A stretch of DNA of 16,162 nucleotides from UHGV virus genome UHGV-0124814. One strand, 5' to 3'. The translations under genes and the position numbers were made by a program. A model generated the notes under the pieces. It was not told the DNA's origin. It made no database searches and was given only the letters and a program-made list of their open reading frames with translations. This DNA comes from a virus. Positions 1 to 16,112 of this stretch are shown one piece after another. Position 1 is the stretch's first letter. The number at the start of each line of letters is the position of its first letter.

Positions 1-37
1 CGCCATAATTGATTTAATTCACAAATAAAACTATAAC

Positions 38-706
38 ATGGTGAAATCAATGAAAAAAAACACAGATGATGGGGCTAAAATTTACACACCACTTACCCTA
101 AAGCTTTATGACTGGTGGGTTTTGGGAGTATCAAATCGGCTTGCATGGGGATGTCCTACAAAGGAACACCTTCTTCCACACTTTCTGGAACATTTAGGTA
201 ACAACCATCTGGATATTGGTGTTGGAACTGGGTTTTATCTTACTCACGTACCTGAGAGTAGTCTGATATCTTTAATGGATTTGAACGAAGCTAGCCTGAA
301 CGCGGCATCTACAAGGGCTGGGGAATCAAAAATTAAACATAAAATTAGCCATGATGTTTTTGAACCTTATCCCGCGGCGTTACATGGTCAATTTGATTCC
401 ATTTCCATGTTTTACCTTCTTCACTGCCTGCCTGGAAATATATCTACAAAAAGCTGTGTAATACGCAATGCGGCGCAGGCCTTAACTGACGATGGAACTC
501 TATACGGAGCCACAATTCTTGGCGATGGAGTTGTGCACAATAGCTTCGGTCAAAAACTGATGCGCATTTACAATCAGAAAGGCATCTTTTCAAACACAAA
601 AGATTCCGAAGAAGGCTTAACACATATACTCTCAGAGCATTTCGAGAATGTTAAAACCAAGGTTCAAGGTACTGTAGTAATGTTTTCCGCTTCAGGGAAA
701 AAATAG
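38..706 (+). CDS. Class I SAM-dependent methyltransferase, substrate unknown (cargo gene in the b-region position)
   Basis: 222-aa ORF; glycine-rich SAM-binding motif 'LDIGVGTGFYL', then 'LMDLNE' and 'FDSISMFYLLHCL'; visibly AT-rich; ATG at 38 lacks an obvious SD, alternative ATG at 50 is preceded by GGTGA. Confidence 0.7.
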   Translation: MVKSMKKNTDDGAKIYTPLTLKLYDWWVLGVSNRLAWGCPTKEHLLPHFLEHLGNNHLDIGVGTGFYLTHVPESSLISLMDLNEASLNAASTRAGESKIKHKISHDVFEPYPAALHGQFDSISMFYLLHCLPGNISTKSCVIRNAAQALTDDGTLYGATILGDGVVHNSFGQKLMRIYNQKGIFSNTKDSEEGLTHILSEHFENVKTKVQGTVVMFSASGKK

Positions 707-713
707 CATCCAA

Positions 714-746
714 CCGCAGCACGTTCTTGCTTAAGACGTGCTGCGG
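714..746. terminator. Perfect 10-bp inverted repeat (CCGCAGCACG ... CGTGCTGCGG) with 13-nt loop between convergent methyltransferase and tfa genes; likely bidirectional terminator
   Basis: Stem-loop read directly; sits in the 54-bp gap between two convergent stop codons; T-run follows on the - strand. Confidence 0.4.
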
Positions 747-760
747 CATAATCCCAATGA

Positions 761-1345
761 TTACTCACTGACAGGGTTCGTAGGCCACTCAATATCAGGT
801 GCAGTTGATGTATCAACACGGTTCAGCAACACCCGATACTTCTTCCAGGCTTCCAGCAACGAGTTTTCTTCCTCCGTTGCGATTTCCAGATCTGCAGCAT
901 CCTGAAGCGGCGCAATATGCTCACTGGCTACCTGCATCAGGTTGTTTTTTGTTTCTTCCGCCTCCCGGATCCGGAACAGTTTTTCTGCTTCCGTATCCTT
1001 CACCCAGGCTGTGCCGTTCCACTTCTGAAACTCCCCTTCCGGCGATAACCAGGTAACATTTTCCGGTAACGGACCGAGTTCAGAAATAAATAACGCGTCC
1101 CCTGACGCTACGTCATAAACCGTTTTACCCCGATGGTCTTCAACGAGATGCCACGATGACTCATCACTGTTGAAAACAGCCACGAAGCCAGCCGGAATAT
1201 CTGGCGGTGCAATATAGGTACTGTTTGCAGGCAGACCTGTATGAGGTGGAATATATGCGTCACCTTCACCAATAAATTCATTAGTTCCGGCCAGCAGATT
1301 ATAAATTTTTATGGTCCGTGGTTGTTCACTCATTCTGAATGCCAT
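761..1345 (-). CDS. tfa: Tail fiber assembly protein Tfa
   Basis: 194-aa ORF '[31 protein letters not shown]...' matching lambda Tfa from memory; start ATG overlaps the stf stop (TAATG). Confidence 0.9.
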
Positions 1346-4041
1346 TATGCAAGCCTCACAATGTAGTTAAATGCGATGTTTTTGACGGTGTTTTCCGCGT
1401 TACCCGCAGCGTTAACGGTGATGGTATGTCCATGTGAACCAATCGCAACGGAGTGCGTATGAGCACCAATACCGACAGTATGCGCGTGTGCACCTGCAGA
1501 TGCTGCTGTGCCGGACAGTGAGTGGCTATGATTACCATCTGTACTGGTATTCGCTAACCACCCCGTAGACATACCTACTGAGCCTTGTACACCCCAGGTA
1601 TTTTGACCTGAGCTTGTATAACCATATTGATAAGTATCTTTAAAAACACTGGGGTTAAATCGACGGCCATCTCTATGGCTGTGATTACCAGCTGCATTCG
1701 TGCTGCCACTTAAACTATGGGTATGCGCACCAGTGTTATTCGTGGATTTAGTGCCGTAATCAAACGACGATGTGGTTTTCGTCCCCAAATCCGTACTGGA
1801 TGCGCTGGCGCTGTGGGTGTGCGATTTAATGCCGTCCCGTTCCTGAGACAATACGGCACGACCACTGGCAGGTTTGCCCTTAATCGTCCAGCCACGCATA
1901 TCAGGGATCACGCCTGACGGATAAGCGGCTGCAAGTTTCGGGTAGGCAGATTTGTCAAAAGTCTGCCCCTGCATCAGGGCATAACCAGACGGAACGGTAT
2001 CCGATGGCCACGGGATTGGTGCGCCAGGCGGATAAAACTGCTCTGATGGCGTATAGAGTGAATAAACTGTACCGTCCGTTAACCCTTCCGGCTTATTAGC
2101 AGAATATGCTGGTGACGTATGAATCGTCACGCTGGCATTACTGGTATAATCCCATTGAATATTTACACCAGTCGCATAATTTCCGATTGCAACGTAAATA
2201 TCGTAAGTATCACCAGATGTATTGACCCAGGCAAAATTTGTAAACCCTGTCGATGTGCGCTGCCATAAAGCACCAGTAATCCCCTTCGGATTACCATTAC
2301 CTGCACGCAAAACAAGTTCAGATATACCTGCCTGTTGAGGTGAACCGACGTTAAATCCAGTGCCACCAATCAACGTAATTGAAACAACAGAACTCGCCTG
2401 TGGCATGGTTACCGTTGCTAATTTGAACCAACCAGCACCACCGCTGAATGACATTGTTGTTGAGTTAAGCGTACCAATATCTTTCGGCGTCAGTGTTATA
2501 TCCTCCGAAAGCGCCTTACCATTCACCTTACGGTCAGAAGGTACCCGATCATTCGCATTGTCATTCGCTGCTTTAACTGCCTTCGGTGTCGCGGCAAGCG
2601 TTTCAGACGTACTGTTTGTCGCACTGCTGAGCTGTACTATCCCCTTTTTCGTCGTGCTCGCATCCTCAAGCGCCACGGCGGATGCAATATCCTCTGCCCG
2701 TTTTGCCGCTGTCTCAGCGCGCGTTGCTGCGGATTCTGCCGTACTTTTGCTCTGTGCTGCCGCTGTCGCACTGCCAGCAGCCTCTGTCGCCTTTGTGGAT
2801 GCCGTCGTGGCGCTGCTCTTCGCTGCTGACGCCTGTCTGGTCGCCTCATCTTTTGAAGCAGACGCCGATGATGCCGATGACGCCGCCGAACTGGCGGACG
2901 ATGCCGCTGCCGTTTTTGAGGATTCTGCGCTGGTTTCCGACGCTTTCGCGTTCGTTTCGGATGTCTTCGCTGAGGAAGCAGACCTCGCTGCTGCGCTGGC
3001 CTGTTCAGTGGCTTCGCCAGTCTTCGTTGTGGCTGTTGAAGCGGATGATGCGGCGCTTTCTGCCGATTTTCCGGCGGCGGTGGCACTGACTGAGGCCTGC
3101 CCGGCACTTGTTGATGCGGCACTGGCGGACGACGCAGCCGCTGTTTTTGAATCTGCCGCAGCTGAGGCACTCTGTCCCGCTGCCGTTTCAGAAGACCTGG
3201 CGTTCGTCTCGGACGTTTTGGCCGCCTTCGCAGAATTTGCTGTCGCCGTTGCCGAGGAAGCTGCGCTGCTGGCGCTCGAGGCTGCGCTCGTTTCTGATGA
3301 TTTTGCCGCCTCTTTTGAAGCCGACGCATCCCGGGCTGAGGTGGCAGCTTCTGACGCTTTCGTGGTCGCGGTGGATGCAGAAGTGGCTGCTGATTGTTGT
3401 GACGCTGCGGCATTCGTTTCTGACGTTTTCGCCGCAGCGGCACTGGTGGCCGCCGCGCTTTTTGAGGACTCTGCAGCGGCAGCACTTTTTTCCGCTTCAG
3501 TGGCCTTTGTTGATGCCGTTTCTGCGCTGGAAGACGCTGACTGAGCCGACGACGCGGCCTGTCCGGCTGACGTGCTGGCTGCGCGTGCTGAGCCTGCAGC
3601 ATCAGTCGCATGGGTTGCCGCCTCACGGGCTGATGTGCTGGCATCGCCGGCTGACTTCTTCGCGGCTGCCGTGTTCTGTGCCACTGCGGACGCGTTACGC
3701 TCCACCTCTTCCACCATCACTTCAAAACGGCGCAGTGCCTCCGGTCGGACATCATCCTCCGTCATGGCACCGAGAAAATCATTCAGCGTACCTGGTCTGG
3801 AACCTTCATAGACGGTAATGGTCCCGGCATGTGAAGGCGGAAAACCTTCAACCAGCAGGGTGACGCTGTACTGACCATGCTCAACATCCATGCTGTAACG
3901 TCCGGCTTCATCCGGATTTTCAGAGGCCACCGTGTTCACCACCACCGTGCTGCTGGTTCGTCTGGCCTTCAGCACAATGGTGCAGTTCTGTACTGGTTTT
4001 CCTGTGCCATCTTTAAGCACGCCAGAAATTTTTACTGTCAT
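1345..4041 (-). CDS. stf: Side tail fiber protein Stf
   Basis: 898-aa ORF; N-terminus '[22 protein letters not shown]...' matches lambda Stf as recalled; central Ala/Ser/Thr-rich repeats; C-terminal HxH-rich region ending '...[11 protein letters not shown]'. Confidence 0.9.
2690..3700 (-). repeat. Degenerate tandem Ala/Ser/Thr-rich repeats inside stf (recurring '...AAKTSETNA...', '...SSASSAASS...', '...STATTK...')
   Basis: Repeated peptide blocks read from the translation; the GCN-rich DNA creates long spurious ORFs in other frames on both strands. Confidence 0.6.
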
Positions 4042-4192: not shown

Positions 4193-4792
4193 TCAGAAAC
4201 GGTATCCGATACCAACAATAAATGCATCCGTTCGCCAGTCGCCACTACCGGAACCTTCATAAGCAAGGTCAATGGTCACGGATTCGGTCGGATTAAACTG
4301 CACGCCAGCCCCCCACGCCAGAGACGTGTTGCTGTGGCGACCGTCATCACTTCCGGTCAGCACATCGTGCGTTTTCCCCTTGTTGTCAGTTACGCGGAGA
4401 TAATCCCCGGAGAAAGTCGAAATACGGCTGTAAGCCACACCCGCCATCGCATACGCGCTGAACCATTCATTCACGCGCACAGACGGCCCCGCCATTACGC
4501 TGAACCAGCGGTTACGAACGGAATCTTCATGCCAGCGGGTATCGCTGTAACGGGTCAGCTGGCGATTCTTGTCTCCTGCATAGCTGAATGACGTCACCAG
4601 CCCCAGTGTGTCCGTAAACTCATAACGGTATTTCACGTTAATCCCGTTCAGATCATCACTGCCGGGGACGTTCGTCGAGGCATGAAGATACCCCGCGCTC
4701 AGCGTGGACTGATGTTCAGACGCCCATGCAGGCGCACCGGATACGGCCAGACAAATGGCTGCGGACAAAATTGCTGCACAAACTTTACGCAT
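4193..4792 (-). CDS. lom: Lom outer-membrane protein (Ail/Lom/PagC family beta-barrel)
   Basis: 199-aa ORF 'MRKVCAAILSAAICLAVSGAPAWASEHQSTLSAGYLH...GIGYRF' with signal peptide and C-terminal aromatic residue; near-identical to lambda Lom as recalled; SD GAGAGG upstream. Confidence 0.9.
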   Translation of the reverse strand: MRKVCAAILSAAICLAVSGAPAWASEHQSTLSAGYLHASTNVPGSDDLNGINVKYRYEFTDTLGLVTSFSYAGDKNRQLTRYSDTRWHEDSVRNRWFSVMAGPSVRVNEWFSAYAMAGVAYSRISTFSGDYLRVTDNKGKTHDVLTGSDDGRHSNTSLAWGAGVQFNPTESVTIDLAYEGSGSGDWRTDAFIVGIGYRF

Positions 4793-4862: not shown

Positions 4863-6026
4863 TCAACGAATACTGATGCCGGAAGCGGCTTTTTTGGTCA
4901 CAATCACCGTACAGTCGGTGATATTGCCTGCCCCCTGATTGCCTTTCTGGAAAATCTTAAACTCCAGAGTGACGCTACCACCACCACTAGGCATATCAAT
5001 AACTGCACTGTAACTACCGGGAATGGCCCCTTTAGTTTCTCTGGATGCGATTAATACGCCGTTTTTGCGAACTTCAAAACCATAACCCGTGTATCGCGTG
5101 CCTCCTGGGTTATTTCCGCTCCCCGGATCGTCATACGCTATACCGTTAAAAATAATGGGCGGAATAATAATCTGGCGGTCAAAGTTATGATCATCGCTGA
5201 TGGTGACTGTAACCGTACCGTTTGGTGTTTCCGTGTTACCCCACGTACCGACTTTTTTCGGGAAGGCTTTTGATACAGCTTTAACGAAATCCCCTCTGAC
5301 CTGGGTCGCCTCCAGCATGCCCTTAATCGTACAGTTCTGGTTAATCTTGACATTGTTGAGCGTTCCTGAGTTCGCATTCACACTGCCACTGATATCCGCA
5401 TTTTTAGCGGTCAGCTTTCCGTCTGATGTCAGGGAAAATACCGGAGGACTGCCACCGCTGGTAATGGTGGGGGCCGTCAGGCGCTTCAGGAACACGTCGT
5501 TCATGAATATCTGGTTGCCCTGCGCCACAAACATCGGCGTTTCATTCCCGTTTGCCGGGTCAATAAACGCGATACGGTTAGCGGCAACCAGAAACTGGCT
5601 CAGCTTGCCTTCCTCCGTGTCCTCCATGCTGAGGCCAATACCCGCGACATAATGTTTGCCGTCTTTGGTCTGCTCAATTTTGACGCCCCACATGGCATTC
5701 CATTTATCGTTAGCGTCCTTCCACTCTTTCGAAAACTCCTCCAGTCTGCTGGCGTTATCTTCCGTCAGCTCAAAGTTTTCCAGCAGTTCCTTGCCGAGAT
5801 GCGTTTTATTGATCAACCCTTTATAAAAATTCAGATAACCTTCCGCATCATCGCTCGCCCGACCGACGGCCTCCACAAATGCCGATTTACCAACGGTGTT
5901 CACGCTGCGGATATAAAAGTAATAATCATAACCTGGCTTAATATTGCTACTGGCGGCTATCCAGTACAGCGCCGTACCAAGATAACGCGCGCTGGTTTCA
6001 ACCTGCCTGATATCGATAAGCGGATT
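4863..6026 (-). pseudogene. J: C-terminal fragment (~387 codons) of tail tip/host-specificity protein J; N-terminal part of the gene deleted
   Basis: Open frame from 6026 down to the stop at 4863 with no ATG at its 5' end (first candidate is GTG at 5903); translation resembles the lambda J C-terminus as recalled. Confidence 0.8.
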
Positions 6027-6352
6027 TTATAGGCACGGGTATCACCTTCATTAAACCACACCAGCAGCGCCTGCTGCCCCTGCTCTCCGGGCATCCACGC
6101 CAGCGTGAAGCTGGTATCTCCGGCGGATTTCTGACCCTGCCCGGTCGCGGTCCAGTCCGCATCTTCATCATCGAGATAACTGTCGTCATAGGACTCAGCG
6201 GTCAGTTCGCCGGGCGTCAGGTCTTTAACTTTAGCCAGACGCGACCAGTCAACGTCTGAAAGCGGGTTCGCATAAGGGTCGCCGCTCCCGTTATAAACCC
6301 ACAGGGTGGTTCCGGCACCTTTCACCGGTATTGCTGGATTTGGTACAGGCAT
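5957..6352 (-). pseudogene. V: Truncated major tail tube protein V (N-terminal ~120 aa, then out-of-frame read-through into J sequence)
   Basis: '[20 protein letters not shown]...TRAYKIR' matches the lambda gpV N-terminus as recalled, then changes to '[20 protein letters not shown]' and stops; lambda V is about twice as long. Confidence 0.8.
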
Positions 6353-6359
6353 ATCGTCC

Positions 6360-6755
6360 TCACATTTCATAGGTAATGACATAAGTCAGATCGGCAGAAC
6401 TCCACAGGCCCGCATCATCGTCGCGCCGGTAGTCATAGCCGCTGGCCACCATACTGGTGATCAAATCTGACAGTGCCGGGACATCGCTCATCACCGGATA
6501 AATCCGGGACTCCATCCACGAATCCAGCTCTGAATCCGGCACCTGAGCAGGCAGGAAAACTTCAATATGCAGCTCCGCCTGCCAGGTATCACTGTCCAGC
6601 TCTTCGCCCGTGTATTCAGCGCCGGTGAGATAAACGGCAATTGCCGGAAAATCCGCCTCATCAAAAACAGCGGGGCGACCATCAAAAAGCGTCGCCCCGG
6701 TGTCATGCTTCTCCAGTGCATCCAGTACGGCTGCACGGAGTTCAGTATGTTTCAT
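6360..6755 (-). CDS. U: Minor tail protein U (tail terminator), apparently intact
   Basis: 131-aa ORF '[36 protein letters not shown]...' matching lambda gpU in sequence and length; start ATG overlaps the upstream stop (ATGA). Confidence 0.9.
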
Positions 6756-7165
6756 CGCTTTATTACCATTCTCAGTTGATGCTGCAGCGCATAGCCCAGC
6801 TCTTTCGGAAGACGTTCACGCCGTATCCGTTCAATATTCTGTTTAAACGCCGTGGTAAGCGGCACCGCCATCGGGATTTTCACCACATCAATGGGGTAAC
6901 GGTTTTTCCCGGCCACACGCTGCATGACATGCCACCGGCCATTTTTCAGTTGCTGAATAAACGCGCCGGGAATACGACGGTTTCCCACCACAAGCACGCT
7001 GCCGCCACCTTTCAGGGATGAACGCTGCCCCTTTTTACGACGTCTGCGGCGGGAAAGGACAACCCGCGCGTTACCCAGCTTGATTACGGGCAAATCCTGC
7101 CAGTTCTGAATGGTACGGATACTCGCGCCGAAAATGTCAGCCAGCTGCTTTTTGTTGACTTCCAT
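6752..7165 (-). pseudogene. In-frame fusion of the first 23 codons of terminase small subunit Nu1 to the C-terminal part of a Z-like tail completion protein
   Basis: 'MEVNKKQLADIFGASIRTIQNWQ' is the lambda Nu1 N-terminus, then sequence switches at ~7096 to a basic tail ('DLPVIKLGNARVVLSRRRRRKKGQ...') that I believe is the gpZ C-terminus; ATG sits at the conserved distance from cos. Confidence 0.7.
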
Positions 7166-8930: not shown

Positions 8931-9398
8931 TCATCGAAGGCATTGCGTCCTGATGTATTCCTGAAGCGTTCTCAGTGCTGTTTGGTCGCGGATAATTCCG
9001 TCCCGGATACCGAGAACGTTTCGTCCAGCAACTGGAGAGAGTTCGACGGTGGCATCATTGCCCATGCCGGAGGCGCTGGAGGTTTCGGCTGAGGATGGCA
9101 CAGGGCATTTTCCTTTGACGAGCACCCTGCCACCATTATCAAGCTTGCGACGAAGAGCATCATTTTCAGCTTTCGCATCAGCTAACTCCTTCGTGTATTT
9201 TGCATCGAGCGCAGCAACATCACGCTGACGCATCTGCATGTCAGTAATTGCCGCGTTCGCCAGCTTCAGTTCTCTGACATTTTTGTCGCGCTGGGCTTTG
9301 TAGGTAATGGCGTTATCACGGTAATGATTCAGCCCCAGACTAAGCACACCACAGGCTACCAGCAGGACAATAATCACCACACACAGAACACGGTTCAT
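8931..9398 (-). CDS. Rz: Rz i-spanin
   Basis: From ATG at 9398 (SD GGTGGTGA): '[17 protein letters not shown]...[60 protein letters not shown]...' closely resembling lambda Rz; the longer track ORF starts at an upstream codon. Confidence 0.85.
8972..9178 (-). CDS. Rz1: Rz1 o-spanin lipoprotein, embedded in Rz in the +1 frame
   Basis: 68-aa ORF '[21 protein letters not shown]...' with lipobox 'VAGC' and proline-rich stretch '[11 protein letters not shown]'; embedded position typical of Rz1. Confidence 0.8.
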
Positions 9399-9497
9399 AT
9401 CACCACCAACGGATTGTCCAGACCAGAACAGCAATGGCCACAATACGAATGGCAAATGCCATTGCCCGAATAAGTTCAGCACTCATCTTTTTAAAGT

Positions 9498-10433
9498 TCA
9501 CGATTTCAGCGCAATGACCAGTTTTGCCAGCCCATACAGCATCGGAGACACAGCAATAGCGTATGTATTTTTCCAGTAATACGTCGTGTCACCACAAATC
9601 CACGGCACATTTACAGCACTGCCACCATGACACTGCGCGTTAAACACAGTGAGGTCAGCACGAAACTGCTTCAGCATGGCTGTAAACAGCGCAGGTTGCT
9701 GTGCGTAGGTGGCGGCGCTCATGTCAAACTCTCCCTGCATCCAGCACACCGCCAGCAACACATTTTTCGGGTTCTTCTGTAATGCCGCTTTGGTGCGTGC
9801 GATCAGGTCCTGATATAACGGTTTACCCACACCCCAGCGTGCCGAATCCTGGCTGGCCCCCGTGTCCGCACTGAATGTCCCCTCCGCGCCCTGGGTGAAT
9901 GCCGAACCACCACGACAGCATGGTACCAGCAGGATCCCCGCGTTATTCGGGATATACGGAAGCAGTTTTTTGGCAATATGTAAGCCCTGGCCGACACAGC
10001 CGTACTGCCCTTTGCTCAGGTCTGCCTTCGGATGATTCAGCGTACTCATATCCTGCACATCATGCAGACAGTGGTCAGCCGGGATGATGTCGTTATACGT
10101 ACAACTCTCTCCACCCGGAGTTACCGTGCTGCGGCGCGCCAGCTGTTTAATGCGCGGATCCGGAGCATCGTAAGAATCCGGTAACGGAAGCCCTTCACCG
10201 TAGGCCATGCCGTTGGACTGTCCGGCAAGCACAACCACGTAGAACCAGTCCGGCTCAGATGAAGGGCCGACCTGTGGATCTCCTTCAATAGCCACCGCCT
10301 GCATCAGTGTGTACGGCGTAATGGCAACCGGTCCGCCATATGGCTGCCAGCCCTCTTTCAGTTTGTGTGTCAGCTTTTCCGCAAGGTCTGACGGCGACGC
10401 CGCCCTGACAACATCATAGTGTTTAAATGCCAT
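9498..10433 (-). CDS. Prophage NanS-p-like sialate 9-O-acetylesterase (N-terminal DUF1737-like segment plus esterase core), probably C-terminally truncated
   Basis: 311-aa ORF with 'VVLAGQSNGMAYGEGLPLPD', 'GILLVPCCRGGSAF', 'CWMQGEFD', 'WICGDTTYYWK' resembling E. coli NanS/YjhS as recalled; strong SD GGGAGGA; ORF ends ~100 nt before Rz. Confidence 0.8.
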   Translation of the reverse strand: MAFKHYDVVRAASPSDLAEKLTHKLKEGWQPYGGPVAITPYTLMQAVAIEGDPQVGPSSEPDWFYVVVLAGQSNGMAYGEGLPLPDSYDAPDPRIKQLARRSTVTPGGESCTYNDIIPADHCLHDVQDMSTLNHPKADLSKGQYGCVGQGLHIAKKLLPYIPNNAGILLVPCCRGGSAFTQGAEGTFSADTGASQDSARWGVGKPLYQDLIARTKAALQKNPKNVLLAVCWMQGEFDMSAATYAQQPALFTAMLKQFRADLTVFNAQCHGGSAVNVPWICGDTTYYWKNTYAIAVSPMLYGLAKLVIALKS

Positions 10434-10923: not shown

Positions 10924-11000
10924 TGGCGCGTTGTACTGGATTCGAACCAGTGACCGATTGCTTAGAAGGCAATTGCTCTGTCCGGCTGAGCTAACAACGC
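10924..11000 (-). tRNA. tRNA-Arg (anticodon TCT)
   Basis: Reverse complement folds as cloverleaf: acceptor GCGTTGT/ACAACGC, D-arm GCTC..GAGC, anticodon stem ATTGC/GCAAT with loop CTTCTAA, T-arm ACTGG-TTCGAAT-CCAGT, encoded CCA. Confidence 0.85.
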
Positions 11001-11013
11001 ATGATGCAGATAA

Positions 11014-11090
11014 TGGACCGCCATCGGGGACTTGAACCCCGCGCAGCCAGCTTCGAAGGCTGGCGCTCTTTCCTGATGAGCTAATGGCGG
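11014..11090 (-). tRNA. tRNA-Arg (anticodon TCG)
   Basis: Cloverleaf: acceptor CCGCCAT/ATGGCGG, D-arm GCTC..GAGC, anticodon stem CCAGC/GCTGG with loop CTTCGAA, T-arm CGGGG-TTCAAGT-CCCCG, encoded CCA. Confidence 0.8.
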
Positions 11091-11097
11091 TATGTGA

Positions 11098-11173
11098 TGG
11101 TGGCCCTTGCTGGATTTGAACCAGCGACCTGGCGATTATGAGTCGCTCGCTCTCACCACTGAGCTAAAGGGCC
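11098..11173 (-). tRNA. tRNA-Ile2-like (anticodon CAT; could formally be Met)
   Basis: Cloverleaf: acceptor GGCCCTT/AAGGGCC, anticodon loop CTCATAA, T-arm GCTGG-TTCAAAT-CCAGC, CCA; overall very similar to E. coli tRNA-Ile2 as recalled. Confidence 0.8.
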
Positions 11174-11222: not shown

Positions 11223-11678
11223 TCAAACGATTAAATCCTGAACTTCCCTGACTGTCTGCTCAAAACGTCCGGTCTCCAGTTCAACGCCAATCGCACGACG
11301 CCCGAGCGCCAGTGCCGCTTTTACCGTTGAACCTGAGCCCATAAAAAAATCTGCAACCTGGTCTCCCGGACGACTGCTCGCGTTGATTATCTGCTGCAAC
11401 ATTTCTGCCGGTTTTTCGCACGGATGTTTCCCTGGATAGTACTGCACCGGTTTATACGTCCACACATCGGTGTACGGCACCTGCACCGTCACACCGAAAT
11501 ACCTCCGCAAATTTTTATATTCACTCAGCAGTTCCATATACTGCCGGTTCAGCTCACTGTATGTGCTGACCAGTTGGTAATGGGACTTTTCCAGTTCTCC
11601 CCGCTGATGTTTCTCTTCTGCCACCCGGGCAAACAGCGACTGTAATTTCAGATAATCGCTTTCGTTCGGTATCCGGCG
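11223..11678 (-). pseudogene. C-terminal fragment of a phage DNA N6-adenine/N4-cytosine methyltransferase; N-terminal half absent
   Basis: Frame open from 11678 with no ATG (first start-like codon is GTG at 11624); contains 'HPCEKP' and C-terminal SAM motif 'FFMGSGST' but no DPPY-type motif. Confidence 0.65.
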
Positions 11679-11753
11679 TTAATTGTTAACTGGTTAACGT
11701 CACCTGGAGGCACCAGGCACCGCATCACAAAATTCATTGTTGAGGACGCGATA

Positions 11754-11942
11754 ATGGAAACGTTATTACCAAACGTTAATACGTCTGAAGGTTGTTTTGA
11801 AATTGGTGTCACTATCAGTAACCCTGTATTTACTGAAGATGCCATTAACAAGAGAAAACACGAACGGGAGCTATTAAATAAAATATGCATTCTTTCAATG
11901 CTGGCCCGTTTACGTCCGATACAAAAAGGATGCTGGCAATGA
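11754..11942 (+). CDS. Hypothetical small protein, 62 aa
   Basis: ATG preceded by SD (GAGGACGCGATA-ATG); stop overlaps the next ATG (ATGA); no family recognised. Confidence 0.45.
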   Translation: METLLPNVNTSEGCFEIGVTISNPVFTEDAINKRKHERELLNKICILSMLARLRPIQKGCWQ

Positions 11943-12130
11943 ATACAGCATTTGCACTTGTTCTGACAGTTTTTCTTGTTTCCGGAGAGCCAGTTGATAT
12001 TGCAGTCAGTGTTCACAGGACAATGCAGGAGTGTGTGACTGCAGCAACCGAACAGAAAATTCCCGGTAACTGTTACCCGGTCGATAAAGTTATTCACCAG
12101 GATAATAACGAAATCCCGGCAGGTCTTTAA
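11939..12130 (+). CDS. Hypothetical small protein, 63 aa, with N-terminal hydrophobic segment (signal peptide or membrane anchor) and two Cys
   Basis: ATG at 11939 with AAAGGA 8 nt upstream; 'MNTAFALVLTVFLVSGEPVDIAVSV...'; the track ORF starts 18 codons earlier at a less likely ATG. Confidence 0.45.
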   Translation: MNTAFALVLTVFLVSGEPVDIAVSVHRTMQECVTAATEQKIPGNCYPVDKVIHQDNNEIPAGL

Positions 12131-12222: not shown

Positions 12223-14694
12223 ATGAGTAAAGTCTTTATTTGCGCCGCCATTCCGGACGAACAGGCAATAAAGGAAGAAGGTGCAGTCGCTGTAGCCACT
12301 GCCATTGAAGCTGGCGACGAACGCCGTGCTCGAGCAAAATTTCACTGGCAATTCCTGGAACATTATCCGGCTGCTCAGGACTGCGCTTATAAATTTCTTG
12401 TTTGCGAGGATAAACCCGGTATACCCCGCCCTGCCCTCGATTCCTGGGATGCTGAATATATGCAGGAAAACCGCTGGGATGAGGAGTCTGCTTCCTTTGT
12501 CCCGGTTGAGACTGAATCCGATCCGATGAACGTCACTTTTGACAAGCTGGCCCCTGAAGTACAGAACGCTGTCATGGTTAAGTTCGACACATGTGAAAAC
12601 ATCACCGTTGATATGGTTATTAGCGCACAGGAATTGTTGCAGGAAGACATGGCAACATTCGACGGACATATCGTTGAAGCGTTGATGAAAATGCCAGATG
12701 TTAACGCCATGTATCCGGAGCTTAAGCTGCATGCCATCGGGTGGGTTAAGCATAAATGTAAGCCTGGTGCCAAATGGCCCGAAATTCAGGCAGAGATGCG
12801 CATCTGGAAAAAACGTCGCGAAGGTGAACGCAAGGAAACCGGAAAATACACGTCTGTTGTTGATCTCGCCCGCGCCAGAACCAATCAACAGCACACTGAA
12901 AATTCAACAGGAAAAATCAACCCGGTCATTGCTGCCATTCATCGCGAATACAAGCAGACATGGAAAACACTGGATGACGAACTGGCCTACGCTCTCTGGC
13001 CTGGTGATGTGGATGCCGGAAACATTGACGGCAGCATCCATCGCTGGGCAAAAAATGAAGTTATCGACAACGACCGCGAAGACTGGAAGCGTATCTCGGC
13101 ATCAATGCGCAAACAGCCTGATGCCCTTCGCTACGACCGCCAGACTATTTTTGGCCTTGTCCGTGAACGTCCGATCGACATTCACAAAGACCCTGTGGCA
13201 CTGAACAAATACATTACTGAATACCTGACTACAAAGGGCGTGTTTGAAGATGAAGGAACAAATCAGAGCGCAACTGATACTCTCTCGTCGCCAGTACCAG
13301 AAACTGATGCAGTGGAAACGGCAATTCCGGACAACGAAAAAACCGAATGCAAAGTGGAAGTCGAACCATCTGTAGAACGTGAGGGGCCGTTCTACTTCCT
13401 CTTCACCGACAAGGATGGCGAAAAATACGGTCGCGCAAACAAACTTTCTGGTCTGGATAAGGCGCTGTCTGCTGGGGCTACTGAAATCACGAAAGAAGAA
13501 TATTTCGCCCGCAAAAACGGTACATACTCAGGTTCACAACAAAATACTGGTGCATCTGACACGACCGCACAACCAGGGTCAGTAAAAGTTACCGCTGACG
13601 AAGTAAACAAAATTATGCAGGCAGCCAATATCAGCCAGCCTGACGCCGATGAACTGCTTGCAGTATCACGTGGTGAATTTGTTGAAGGGATTAGCGACCC
13701 GAATGATCCGAAATGGGTAAAGGGGATTGAAACCCGCGATTCTGTAAACCAGAACCAGCAAGAATCGGAACAGAACGACCAGAAAGCGGAACAAAACAGC
13801 CCAAATGCGTTACAAAACGAGCCAGAAACGAAACAGCCTGAATCAGTGGCGCAACAGGAAGTGGAAAAAGTCTGCACCGCCTGCGGTCAGACCGGCGGCG
13901 GCAACTGCCCTGATTGTGGCGCGGTAATGGGCGACGCAACATACCAGGAAACATTCGATGAAGAGTATCAGCCTGAAGTTCAGGAAGATGATCCGGAGGA
14001 AATGGAAGGCGCTGAACATCCACACAAGGAGAACACTGGCGGCAATAAGCATCACGATAGCGATAATGAAACTGGCGAGACGGCAGATCACTCAATTAAG
14101 GTGAACGGTCATCAAGAAATCACATCCACCAGCAGGACGTGTGACCATCTAATGATCGACCTTGAAACCATGGGAAAAAATCCTGATGCCCCGATCATCT
14201 CAATAGGTGCAATATTTTTCGATCCGCAAACCGGAGATATGGGACCGGAATTTAGTAAGACTATCGATCTGGAAACTGCTGGCGGAGTCATTGATCGGGA
14301 CACCATTAAATGGTGGCTTAAGCAATCACGCGAAGCGCAATCTGCCATTATGACCGATGAAATCCCGTTAGATGATGCACTGTTACAATTGCGGGAATTT
14401 ATCGACGAAAACTCCGGTGAATTTTTTGTTCAGGTTTGGGGAAATGGAGCCAACTTCGACAACACGATTTTGCGCCGTTCATACGAACGGCAGGGGATCC
14501 CCTGCCCGTGGCGTTACTACAACGATCGCGATGTACGCACAATCGTTGAGCTGGGGAAAGCCATAGACTTCGATGCCAGAACGGCTATTCCATTCGAAGG
14601 TGAGCGCCATAATGCACTTGATGACGCCCGTTACCAGGCAAAATACGTTTCAGCTATCTGGCAAAAACTGATCCCGAGTCAGGCTGATTTTTAA
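12223..14694 (+). CDS. Large prophage early-region protein with C-terminal DEDDh (DnaQ-like) 3'-5' exonuclease domain, central Cys4 zinc-ribbon-like motif and acidic linker
   Basis: 823-aa ORF with SD GAGGT; C-terminal motifs 'MIDLETMG', 'WGNGANFDNT', 'HNALDDARY'; 'CTACGQTGGGNCPDCG'; position immediately upstream of xis/int. Confidence 0.8.
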   Translation: MSKVFICAAIPDEQAIKEEGAVAVATAIEAGDERRARAKFHWQFLEHYPAAQDCAYKFLVCEDKPGIPRPALDSWDAEYMQENRWDEESASFVPVETESDPMNVTFDKLAPEVQNAVMVKFDTCENITVDMVISAQELLQEDMATFDGHIVEALMKMPDVNAMYPELKLHAIGWVKHKCKPGAKWPEIQAEMRIWKKRREGERKETGKYTSVVDLARARTNQQHTENSTGKINPVIAAIHREYKQTWKTLDDELAYALWPGDVDAGNIDGSIHRWAKNEVIDNDREDWKRISASMRKQPDALRYDRQTIFGLVRERPIDIHKDPVALNKYITEYLTTKGVFEDEGTNQSATDTLSSPVPETDAVETAIPDNEKTECKVEVEPSVEREGPFYFLFTDKDGEKYGRANKLSGLDKALSAGATEITKEEYFARKNGTYSGSQQNTGASDTTAQPGSVKVTADEVNKIMQAANISQPDADELLAVSRGEFVEGISDPNDPKWVKGIETRDSVNQNQQESEQNDQKAEQNSPNALQNEPETKQPESVAQQEVEKVCTACGQTGGGNCPDCGAVMGDATYQETFDEEYQPEVQEDDPEEMEGAEHPHKENTGGNKHHDSDNETGETADHSIKVNGHQEITSTSRTCDHLMIDLETMGKNPDAPIISIGAIFFDPQTGDMGPEFSKTIDLETAGGVIDRDTIKWWLKQSREAQSAIMTDEIPLDDALLQLREFIDENSGEFFVQVWGNGANFDNTILRRSYERQGIPCPWRYYNDRDVRTIVELGKAIDFDARTAIPFEGERHNALDDARYQAKYVSAIWQKLIPSQADF

Positions 14695-14755: not shown

Positions 14756-15025
14756 ATGAGCGAACAGTACCTGATAACGCTCGACGAGTGGAAACCAAAA
14801 CGGTTCAGTCTCCCAATAACAAACACTACCCTGGTGAAATACGGAAAACTAGGATACATCGTTCCAAGACCACAAAAAATTCGTGGGCGTTGGCTGATAG
14901 ATCGCCGAGCAGTATTTGTTGGGCCTGGTGAAACGGGAATTGCGCCGGAAATTCATACTGGCGATGATGATGCACTGAAGGAGATTTTAACTCATGTCAC
15001 CGAGGCCACGAAAAAACAGCACTGA
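14756..15025 (+). CDS. xis: Excisionase (Xis-like)
   Basis: 89-aa ORF from ATG at 14756 (SD GGAG 8 nt upstream), immediately upstream of and overlapping int by 32 nt. Confidence 0.65.
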   Translation: MSEQYLITLDEWKPKRFSLPITNTTLVKYGKLGYIVPRPQKIRGRWLIDRRAVFVGPGETGIAPEIHTGDDDALKEILTHVTEATKKQH

Positions 15026-16112
15026 CGTAGCCGGTCTTTACGAAAAGTTTGATCGCAGAACTGGCAGAGTTTACTACCAGTATAAAAATCCTGTGACTGG
15101 AAAATTTCACGGACTCGGAACAGACAAAGGTAAGGCAGAAAAAATCGCTTCCACAGCCAATCAGCGAATAGCTGCAGCAGAAGCTGAATATTTCATGCGC
15201 AAAATTGATGAAAGTCCGTCAGCAACAAAACGTCGGGGTATCAGATTAAAGGCATGGGTTGATCGATATCTGAAAATACAGGACACGCGACTGAAAAATG
15301 GAGATATTGCAGCTACAACTCACAAAGAAAAAACTCGAATGGCTGCATACCTGGTTTCCCGTCTGGGAAACCCCCCATTGAAAGAACTGGAAGTAAGAGA
15401 CTTTGCATTAATACTGGATGAGTGGCTGGATAAAGACATGGTCAGCACAGCGAGAGTAAATCGTGGATTATGGGTTGATATTTATAAAGAAGCACAGCAT
15501 GCAGGGGAAGTTCCTCCTGGATGGAATCCTCCGGAGGCTACCCGTAAACCGATCCCTAAAGTAACCAGAGCCAGGCTCACCATGGAAGACTGGCAAAAAA
15601 TTTACAATGCAACGCCTGAAAAACACTTTATCCGTAACGCAATGCTTCTTGCGATTGTTACTGGTCAGCGCCGTGATGACATTTGCCACATGCGTTTTTC
15701 AGATGTGTGGAACGAACACTTGCATATCACCCAGGGAAAAACCGGAATGCGTCTGGCGTTACCGCTTACACTACGCTGTGATGCCATTGGGATAACGTTA
15801 AAAGAAGTTATTGATGGGTGCCGAGACAGAATATTAAGTCCATATCTAATCCATAGTCGGCACCAGAAACAACCGAAGCCGATGAGTAAAGACAACCTGA
15901 GCGACTACTTTGCCAAAGCACGGGATCTGGCTGGGATAATTCCACCAGCAGGAAAAACTCCGCCAACATTTCATGAACAACGCTCTCTATCAGAACGGCT
16001 GTACCGTGCACAGGGTATCGATACAAAAACATTACTAGGACATAAAGTCCAGGCAACCACCGATCGCTATAACGATACTCGAGGTCAGGAATGGGTTAAG
16101 CTGGTTATTTGA
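14994..16112 (+). CDS. int: Tyrosine site-specific integrase, lambda Int family
   Basis: 372-aa ORF; C-terminal catalytic region '...TGQRRDDICHMRFSDV...', 'HEQRSLSERLY', 'LLGHKVQATTDRYNDTRGQEW' parallels lambda Int RHR-Y motifs; distinct from lambda Int itself. Confidence 0.9.
   Translation: MSPRPRKNSTDVAGLYEKFDRRTGRVYYQYKNPVTGKFHGLGTDKGKAEKIASTANQRIAAAEAEYFMRKIDESPSATKRRGIRLKAWVDRYLKIQDTRLKNGDIAATTHKEKTRMAAYLVSRLGNPPLKELEVRDFALILDEWLDKDMVSTARVNRGLWVDIYKEAQHAGEVPPGWNPPEATRKPIPKVTRARLTMEDWQKIYNATPEKHFIRNAMLLAIVTGQRRDDICHMRFSDVWNEHLHITQGKTGMRLALPLTLRCDAIGITLKEVIDGCRDRILSPYLIHSRHQKQPKPMSKDNLSDYFAKARDLAGIIPPAGKTPPTFHEQRSLSERLYRAQGIDTKTLLGHKVQATTDRYNDTRGQEWVKLVI

Follow-up and report, generated by a model that had tools for sequence, protein, structure and literature searches.

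An intact YbcY-family methyltransferase gene carried beside the tail-fibre genes of a defective lambdoid prophage

What does an AT-rich methyltransferase gene do at the end of the tail-fibre genes of a prophage, and is it the phage or its host that profits from it? The question is raised by virus genome UHGV-0124814, a stretch of 16,162 nucleotides (hereafter the window), in which an open reading frame (ORF) of 222 codons occupies positions 38..706 of the plus strand. An earlier reading of the letters (the original prediction) had described this ORF as a methyltransferase that uses S-adenosylmethionine (SAM) and was acquired horizontally as cargo. The ORF proved to be real, though its conserved start moves to ATG50. 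We found the gene to belong to the YbcY family (PHROG 2132), to be intact and to encode a stand-alone class I SAM-dependent methyltransferase of ~24 kDa. It is a lambdoid-phage moron at the att-proximal end, just past stf-tfa. The best overall explanation, to which we assign a probability of about 60%, is a moron for a soluble methyltransferase of small molecules. The gene is already catalogued and conserved.

Identity, coding sequence and fold

Membership of the YbcY family is supported by a full-length profile match and by orthology to the K-12 gene, both by sequence and by synteny. The profile of PHROG 2132 ('unknown function') was matched over positions 1-218 of 218 with E = 7e-157. At the DLP12 locus of K-12 we found a sequence with 99.0% DNA identity to the window gene, which we identified as ybcY because it is set between two tfa fragments, beside appY and ompT. 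The K-12 order is tfa'-ybcY-tfaX-appY-ompT, with the same tfa'–ybcY–tfaX arrangement as here; the K-12 copy is frameshifted, whereas the window copy is intact. RefSeq holds YbcY under WP_000240999 and WP_023148666 as 'class I SAM-dependent methyltransferase', and the record of phage PhiR26_1 itself names the gene YbcY. The family has no experimentally assigned function. A literature search with ybcY, tfaX, the protein accessions and the phage names returned no functional study or phenotype for ybcY, and the mentions found were incidental (in a promoter table, in connection with the ompT neighbourhood and as a null result of an Hha toxicity screen). This lack of a phenotype on record is partly explained by the K-12 copy being a pseudogene.

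RefSeq annotates the gene from ATG38, giving 222 amino acids (aa). The true start is probably ATG50, which gives 218 aa, because its Met opens every homologue as well as the PHROG profile of 218 positions and ATG38 is absent in other genera, where the triplet is replaced (ACAAGGTG). A conserved ribosome-binding site of the AAGGTGA type lies 5-6 nt 5' of ATG50, and the block AAGGTGAAAT(C/T)AATG, which comprises the ribosome-binding site plus the start, was kept in four other genera.

We used profile and structure comparisons to characterise the protein. Pfam Methyltransf_12 was matched with 37.6 bits against a cut-off of 30, and Methyltransf_23, _25 and _11 were likewise above their curated cut-offs; the families matched (Methyltransf_11/12/23/25) are all generic. 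The SAM-binding loop contains an xGxGxG motif I (IGVGTG, aa 60-65). Its residues G61, G63 and G65 did not vary among the 30 homologues of alignment A1, and their conservation in a set of 102 distant representatives of the family was 98-99%. Among the acidic residues expected of the class, the ribose-binding D81 at the end of strand beta-2 was invariant in A1 and 100% conserved among the distant representatives, and D106 of the adenine-binding motif was invariant in A1. The two occupy the positions of Asp77 and Asp102 in BelI. An AlphaFold2 model built from A1 had a mean predicted local distance difference test score (pLDDT) of 90.5 and a predicted template modelling score (pTM) of 0.87, with disorder confined to residues 1-14. 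The class I motifs claimed in the original prediction are thus borne out by the Pfam scores, motif I, D81 and D106. The comparison of hidden Markov models and structures that it had proposed as a check confirmed class I as well, but for the subfamily it returned generic families only.

The prediction had also stated that DNA-methyltransferase signatures are missing, and we agree. A regular-expression check found none of the motifs [DNS]PP[YFW], PCQ and FxGxG in the protein, and no DNA-methylase Pfam family, N6_N4_Mtase and MethyltransfD12 included, was matched. With respect to C5-cytosine enzymes, PC[QN] is absent and the sole 'ENV' lies at aa 203, in the C-terminal strand and in the wrong order. 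A PADLOC search for defence-system proteins gave no meaningful match, the sole one being to mad2 (E = 0.0033, 14.3 bits).

Candidate active site and substrate class

A Foldseek search of the PDB placed PmtA (8ys9) first (E = 2.7e-12, TM 0.61-0.65), with further matches to JHAMT, SgvM, phosphoethanolamine N-methyltransferases, CysG and NodS. When the family profile was searched against the PDB, the best match was JHAMT, a carboxyl O-methyltransferase (E = 1.2e-5), and then came UbiG, ToxA and PmtA, all over the SAM core only. These fold and profile matches point to small-molecule or lipid methyltransferases, none of them outstanding, and O-methyltransferases of acid groups were somewhat over-represented among the best of them (JHAMT, DhpI, BelI/CysG, BioC, Trm9). 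The protein has no transmembrane or hydrophobic segment, an isoelectric point (pI) of 6.9 and an N-terminal helix without strong amphipathy; its maximum 18-residue hydrophobic moment was 0.37 in a sequence-level test. Judged from the sequence and the model together, the substrate is probably a small molecule or lipid-like. This agrees with the earlier view that the target would be a small molecule, a protein or RNA rather than DNA, given the missing DNA-methyltransferase motif, and it favours the first of these. Several named enzymes were tried against their family models and rejected: RquA (16.9 against a cut-off of 175) and CpaM (17.4 against 180) in NCBIfam, PRK14968 (12.8 against 162) and the PmtA equivalog NF045882 (15.6 bits against 390).

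Conservation outside the SAM site singles out a small set of residues. Among the 102 representatives, which are 31-56% identical to the window protein, 31 positions were at least 90% conserved, and beyond the SAM site they included Y16, Y24, D25, W37, C39, H57, S121, H129, C130, K138, N186 and D189. H129 was conserved in 100% and C130 in 96% of them. The pair follows strand beta-4, and in an hhalign comparison of the family profile with BelI/CysG (probability 97.7%) it fell on the His-His of the metal site. BelI and CysG, whose sequences we translated from the supplementary gene sequences of PMC11408123, are metal-dependent carboxyl O-methyltransferases with a His-His-Asp Ca2+ site (PMC11408123). 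Asp189 and Asn186 lie just before the helix that precedes strand beta-6, as does Asp191 in BelI/CysG.

The likeness has clear limits. BelI and CysG (PDB 9FCE, 9FCD), which act in belactosin and cystargolide biosynthesis, are only ~18% identical to the window protein; their second ligand is His where Cys is found here, and their Arg22, which binds the substrate carboxylate, would correspond to Lys22 in a differently aligned N-terminal helix. They belong to actinomycete pathways, whereas the present gene resides on mobile elements of Enterobacterales with no biosynthetic gene cluster around it. JHAMT (PDB 7EBS, 7EC0) was the best sequence-level match among solved structures (21% identity) and is, like the protein predicted here, a soluble single-domain enzyme; it methyl-esterifies the carboxyl of a hydrophobic small molecule. 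It is an insect enzyme, and the match is confined to the SAM core (profile positions 41-149), the substrate-binding regions being unrelated. PmtA (PDB 8YS9; PMC11446283) resembles the window protein in its comparable length and its aromatic N-terminal cap over the active site. At the level of sequence, the resemblance to BelI/CysG and JHAMT covers size, fold and, in part, one active-site motif, and does not imply membership of their classes.

These comparisons suggest how the enzyme may work. SAM would donate the methyl group and a small metabolite or xenobiotic in the cytoplasm would accept it, and His129-Cys130 would form, with Asn186 and Asp189, an acceptor or metal site. O-methylation of an acidic (carboxyl-type) group is the leading sub-hypothesis on the chemistry, a weakly supported one that we put forward tentatively. 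It is rather unlikely, though worth stating, that the YbcY family as a whole comprises uncharacterised metal-assisted (His-Cys-Asp/Asn) O-methyltransferases of small molecules, which would methyl-esterify or otherwise cap an acidic metabolite, signal or toxin that is common. On that reading, the spread on lambdoid phages (70% of complete E. coli genomes), ~600 Klebsiella plasmids and IS-flanked islands (IS, insertion sequence) would reflect a real function in host fitness or virulence, and the genetic linkage with lom, ompT, sodC and iro/rmp cargo would be in keeping with it. The family-invariant residues not engaged with SAM give a list for mutagenesis: Y16, Y24, D25, W37, C39, H57, H129, C130, N186 and D189.

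Phage setting, mobility and rival explanations

In phages 2G7b and PhiR26_1 the gene order was J–lom–stf–tfa–[methyltransferase, opposite strand]–short tfa-like ORF–alpha/beta hydrolase–ompT, with int following ompT in 2G7b. In prophages, the methyltransferase was the last intact gene before the chromosome, beside potB or ompW. The window gene was 99.4-99.7% identical to the copies in phages 2G7b, ev243, PhiR26_1, Turner and Kati, and the gene was present in 16 of 50,697 phage records. Among the 5426 complete E. coli genomes, 3798 contained 80% or more of it (1-712) at 98% identity or above, in nearly every case on the chromosome, and the block 1-1400 was covered to at least 80% in 2360. Sequence matching tfa occurred in 5240 E. 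coli genomes, as against 3836 with the methyltransferase.

The location between tfa and ompT/int, a G+C content at third codon positions (GC3) of 35.4% and the presence in some phages only fit a moron, a cargo gene of lysogenic conversion. It shares with known lambdoid morons and exchangeable cargo loci (such as lom, bor, ompT, sodC and type III secretion system effector loci) the position between tfa and att, the deviant GC, a promoter-like region and the orientation opposite to the late genes, and it co-travels with lom and ompT. It differs from them in encoding a cytoplasmic enzyme instead of a surface or secreted virulence factor, and in being a cassette bracketed by a duplicated tfa 3' end. 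The original prediction had placed the gene in the b-region slot: there is indeed a cargo site at the tfa-att end, but the name 'b region' is an analogy to lambda. The genes to the left of the window had been suggested as a place to look for a partner, and none was found there, only an 89-aa ORF derived from tfa.

This ORF (positions 11712-11981, minus strand, of locus L001) lies just left of the window, divergent from the methyltransferase, and is the equivalent of tfaX. It consists of 35 unique N-terminal residues and the C-terminal ~55 residues of Tfa. L001 and PhiR26_1 have it unbroken, 2G7b has it split, and RefSeq treats it as a partial pseudogene.

As had been proposed, the gene is AT-rich (40.8% GC, against 49.5% for the window, 48.4% for tfa and 54.2% for stf), and the GC3 of tfa and stf, at 46-48%, is well above its own. 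It is also convergent with tfa (761..1345, minus strand), as claimed, across a spacer of 54 bp. The inverted repeat CCGCAGCACGT / ACGTGCTGCGG near its 3' end extends to a hairpin of 14 pairs, with fold energies of -25.6 kcal/mol on the plus strand (z = -3.7) and -32.3 kcal/mol on the minus strand (z = -4.6); none of 200 shuffles folded as well on either strand. No U-tract follows the hairpin on the plus (methyltransferase) strand, and on the minus (tfa) strand a U-run begins 9 nt past the stem. A simple, strict terminator scan called the hairpin on neither strand; given this result and the missing plus-strand U-tract, its role as a terminator is putative. Homology to copies in Salmonella plasmid and insertion sequence (IS) contexts and in Citrobacter freundii ran from window -19/-105 to 712/718 and ended just before the hairpin, which therefore belongs to tfa and not to the cargo. 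Most likely it closes the 3' end of the stf-tfa late transcript, as a hairpin or a terminator. Of the earlier claim of a strong inverted-repeat terminator, the strong, perfect repeat stands; the terminator function is conjectural, and the hairpin is that of tfa and not the cargo's own.

On the minus strand at window ~651-788, RefSeq genomes carry a 45-aa gene call, named 'hypothetical protein' or, in K-12, 'nucleocapsid protein' (WP_001309429 / WP_071592174). It overlaps the 3' end of the methyltransferase gene, the hairpin and the tfa stop, has no Pfam match and is probably a spurious call.

The tfa end is found on both sides of the gene. Window 712-926 recurred at 90% identity at L001 11662-11877, on the other side of the methyltransferase, where the left-hand copy lies just outside the window. 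With the hairpin and the tfa 3' end thus duplicated on either side, the gene is flanked by direct repeats of this end. The duplication was also seen over shorter lengths, in L002 (147 bp) and in L003 and L004 (121 bp each), and in phage 2G7b the tail-fibre module is different, yet a 120-nt tfa remnant flanks the gene. Lambdoid phages are known to be especially mosaic in the tail-fibre region. In a scan of window 1-1400, Rfam gave nothing tied to the methyltransferase. It did report IS009 (RF02111) at 804-1002 on the minus strand, wholly inside the tfa coding sequence (224 bits against a gathering score of 117). This family is a predicted E. coli 'intergenic' small RNA candidate, and the match overlaps the tfa 3' segment that is repeated; the definition of the family probably goes back to the remnant of the tfa pseudogene in K-12, not to a true small RNA.

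The portable unit consists of ~60 bp of upstream sequence, which holds overlapping sigma-70-like elements, plus the ORF. These ~60 bp 5' of ATG50 were conserved in the E. coli phage, Citrobacter, Salmonella and Enterobacter copies, and the promoter-like block (Table 1) was kept 5' of homologues in C. freundii, C. braakii, Salmonella and Enterobacter (alignment A2). An alternative promoter-like element, TTGTAA-17-TTTAAT, overlaps it, with the -10 element TTTAAT at 13-18 and the -35 element TTGTAA just beyond the left edge of the window, and a consensus scan gave another weak site in L001, TTAACC-16-CATAAT. Candidate transcription starts fall near window positions 25 or 44. Shimada et al. assign TTGATT-17-TATAAC in the ybcY/tfaX spacer of K-12 to ybcY; it is one of their constitutive sites of the RpoD holoenzyme and has an H-NS flag (PMC3946193).

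A comparison of ten genomic contexts, whose homologues ranged in identity from 31% to 90%, showed no conserved neighbour; at 56-90% identity the homologues were always single genes, carried by phages, plasmids, IS-flanked segments or chromosomes. Chromosomal copies were found in Salmonella (56% identity, between a PMT_2 glycosyltransferase gene and cybB), Enterobacter hormaechei (65%) and Erwinia (56%, with native-like GC), and an Aeromonas homologue was flanked by transposases. A Salmonella plasmid or IS segment carried a homologue of 88% identity, and copies of 68% and 90% identity were cargo of Citrobacter prophage remnants together with sodC, dinI, sopA and cdiI; two metagenomic relatives complete the contexts listed. 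About 600 Klebsiella plasmids held homologues of ~67% nucleotide (64% protein) identity, often with two matching places per plasmid. In the sole Klebsiella plasmid examined, the K. pneumoniae IncFIB plasmid CP035906.1 with iro/rmp (L020), the homologue at 9047-9700 is a few kb from iroN, iroD and rmpD.

GC3 was 33-36% in the E. coli, Enterobacter, Citrobacter, Aeromonas and Salmonella plasmid copies, independent of the composition of the flanks, and the AT-rich version is a self-sufficient single-gene mobile function. The view that the gene is horizontally acquired cargo is thus upheld by its tfa-to-att position in isolated phages and by the same AT-rich gene on plasmids, on IS segments and in other genera. 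The converse, a conserved chromosomal housekeeping gene, had been named as the finding that would overturn it; this fails for E. coli, although homologues of 56-65% identity do occupy non-phage chromosomal sites in Salmonella, Enterobacter and Erwinia.

The gene is under purifying selection. The ratio of nonsynonymous to synonymous substitution rates (dN/dS) was 0.19 against the C. freundii copy (92% nucleotide identity), 0.16 against the Salmonella copy (88%) and 0.11-0.16 against more distant copies, for which dS was saturating. An exhaustive profile search recovered 416 clusters (at 50% identity) at E < 1e-30 and 1118 at E < 1e-10. Nearly all members were 205-245 aa long, and the distant representatives carried only the automated labels 'UbiE' or 'SAM-dependent methyltransferase'. 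Longer members had N-terminal extensions without Pfam domains, with one exception: P0164 (743 aa), a distant member, is fused to an RCC1-like beta-propeller (WD40_RLD, E = 1.5e-103). This RCC1-repeat fusion suggests a possibly eukaryotic branch of the family.

Genes for alpha/beta-hydrolases or esterases of different families were located within ~2.5 kb of the homologue in four unrelated contexts: phage 2G7b (L003, 5068-6462), Enterobacter (L007, 8584-9414), Erwinia (L011, 4281-5813) and a metagenome contig (L023, 8957-9886). They could hint at methyl-ester chemistry or be a coincidence; their families and orientations differ, and we did not count them as evidence.

Other targets were weighed against a small molecule. 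Orphan DNA methyltransferases are common in phages, and the gene might on that account guard the phage genome against restriction, with the very weak PADLOC match to the MADS protein mad2 as a further pointer. We give this almost no credence: the protein has neither the DPPY or PCQ catalytic motif nor a target-recognition domain, it matched no DNA-methylase Pfam family, a DNA methyltransferase does not figure in the descriptions of the top structural matches listed, and the same prophage contains a separate N6/N4 methylase remnant. A phospholipid N-methyltransferase like PmtA, which would methylate the phosphatidylethanolamine headgroup in the inner membrane of the lysogen and so alter the envelope, is suggested by the top Foldseek match. 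It is very unlikely in view of the NF045882 score and of the peripheral membrane features of PmtA (PMC11446283), with which the pI, the absence of a hydrophobic segment and the lack of a strongly amphipathic N-terminus contrast. A nucleotide of tRNA or rRNA, a translation factor, or the phage's own tail fibre or Tfa stands a somewhat better chance as the target, if still a low one. The bare 218-aa core with its N-terminal cap has no RNA-binding or extra recognition domains, and the gene is oriented opposite to the late operon. A tail-fibre target is also at odds with homologues in settings without phage genes, namely the Salmonella, Enterobacter and Erwinia chromosomes and the examined Klebsiella plasmid.

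The gene might instead be a functionless hitch-hiker, trapped between recombining tfa repeats and of no benefit to phage or host. The frameshift in K-12, the lack of a reported ybcY phenotype in the searched literature and the H-NS flag on the promoter region, which suggests silencing, would all fit. We regard this as improbable, since dN/dS values of 0.16-0.19, conservation of at least 90% at 31 positions among distant relatives and a family of 416 clusters (E < 1e-30) speak for a maintained function, as do the intact state of the gene in a prophage stripped of most structural genes and its independent carriage on plasmids and IS-flanked segments.

Several points weigh against our preferred explanation, a moron for a soluble small-molecule methyltransferase. 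Expression in the lysogen is deduced, for this gene, from promoter-like sequence; the promoter calls are weak consensus matches, and the -10 element of Shimada et al. would put the transcription start within the ribosome-binding site. In K-12, ybcY survives as a pseudogene, and the searched literature reports no phenotype for the gene. No substrate-specific family was matched, all NCBIfam matches being far below their cut-offs, and the tRNA-modifying enzymes CmoA, Trm9 and METTL6 lie in the same score plateau as the small-molecule enzymes. Finally, the equivalence of Asp189/Asn186 to the Asp of the His-His-Asp site cannot be fixed from sequence.

If the gene is such a moron, it would be transcribed from its own sigma-70 promoter, independent of and opposite to late transcription. 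With this putative promoter and the reported RpoD/H-NS site, it may be expressed, or modulated by H-NS, in the lysogen. The hairpin would end the stf-tfa transcript and shield the convergent genes from each other, and the flanking tfa homology would let the gene hitch-hike, or be lost, when tail-fibre modules recombine. The benefit would go to the host and not to virion production. As a sequence feature the gene is ordinary, an annotated and very common prophage cargo, and the earlier description of it was essentially right. Its value is as an experimental target: a mobile single-gene methyltransferase under purifying selection, present in most E. coli and on ~600 Klebsiella plasmids. The practical additions made here are the likely ATG50 start, the minimal portable unit and the tfa origin of the hairpin and repeats.

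The surrounding prophage

The window is essentially an entire defective lambdoid prophage (Table 1). It has lost most of its head and tail genes and has kept lom, stf, tfa and the methyltransferase intact. An N-terminal fragment of V abuts a J of which only the C-terminal part is present, so that most of J is missing along with G, T, H, M, L, K and I. In any complete E. coli genome, a match of the window in a single place covered at most 59% of it.

Table 1. Positions of the features found in the window
Feature	Position	Strand	Remarks
Promoter-like region	9..37	+	TTGATT (9-14), 17-nt spacer, TATAAC (32-37); consensus match
Shine-Dalgarno-like GGTGAA for ATG50	40..45	+	conserved in four other genera
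Methyltransferase coding sequence	50..706	+	218 aa, TAG at 704-706; intact orthologue of K-12 ybcY
Motif I, SAM-binding loop LDIGVGTG	209..232	+	aa 58-65 (222-aa numbering)
His129-Cys130, candidate active-site or metal-ligand residues	422..427	+	directly after strand beta-4, motif IV position
Direct repeat, right-hand copy	712..926		~215 bp; hairpin and last ~55 codons of tfa
Inverted repeat	714..746		arms 714-724 / 736-746, 11 nt, 100% complementary
tfa, tail fibre assembly protein	761..1345	-	194 aa; Pfam Caudo_TAP, E = 3.7e-44
stf, side tail fibre	1345..4041	-	898 aa; Pfam phage_tail_N (E = 4e-70) and Collar; 5' of tfa in the late operon
lom	4193-4792		
J, C-terminal fragment only	4863-5903		
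V, N-terminal fragment	5957-6382		abuts the J fragment
U	6360-6755		
Rz	8931-9482		
DUF1737-SASA esterase	9498-10433	-	311 aa, sialate O-acetylesterase-like
Three tRNAs	10924-11173		
N6/N4 DNA methylase, truncated	11223-11624		
ORF with exonuclease domain	12223-14694		823 aa
int	14994-16112		

A fused ORF marks the loss of the head genes. The ORF at 6752-7165 on the minus strand joins Nu1 residues 1-31 to gpZ residues 74-190, and the terminase large subunit, the portal and the head genes are therefore gone. The DUF1737-SASA ORF, which adjoins the lysis genes, is another cargo-type gene of this prophage.

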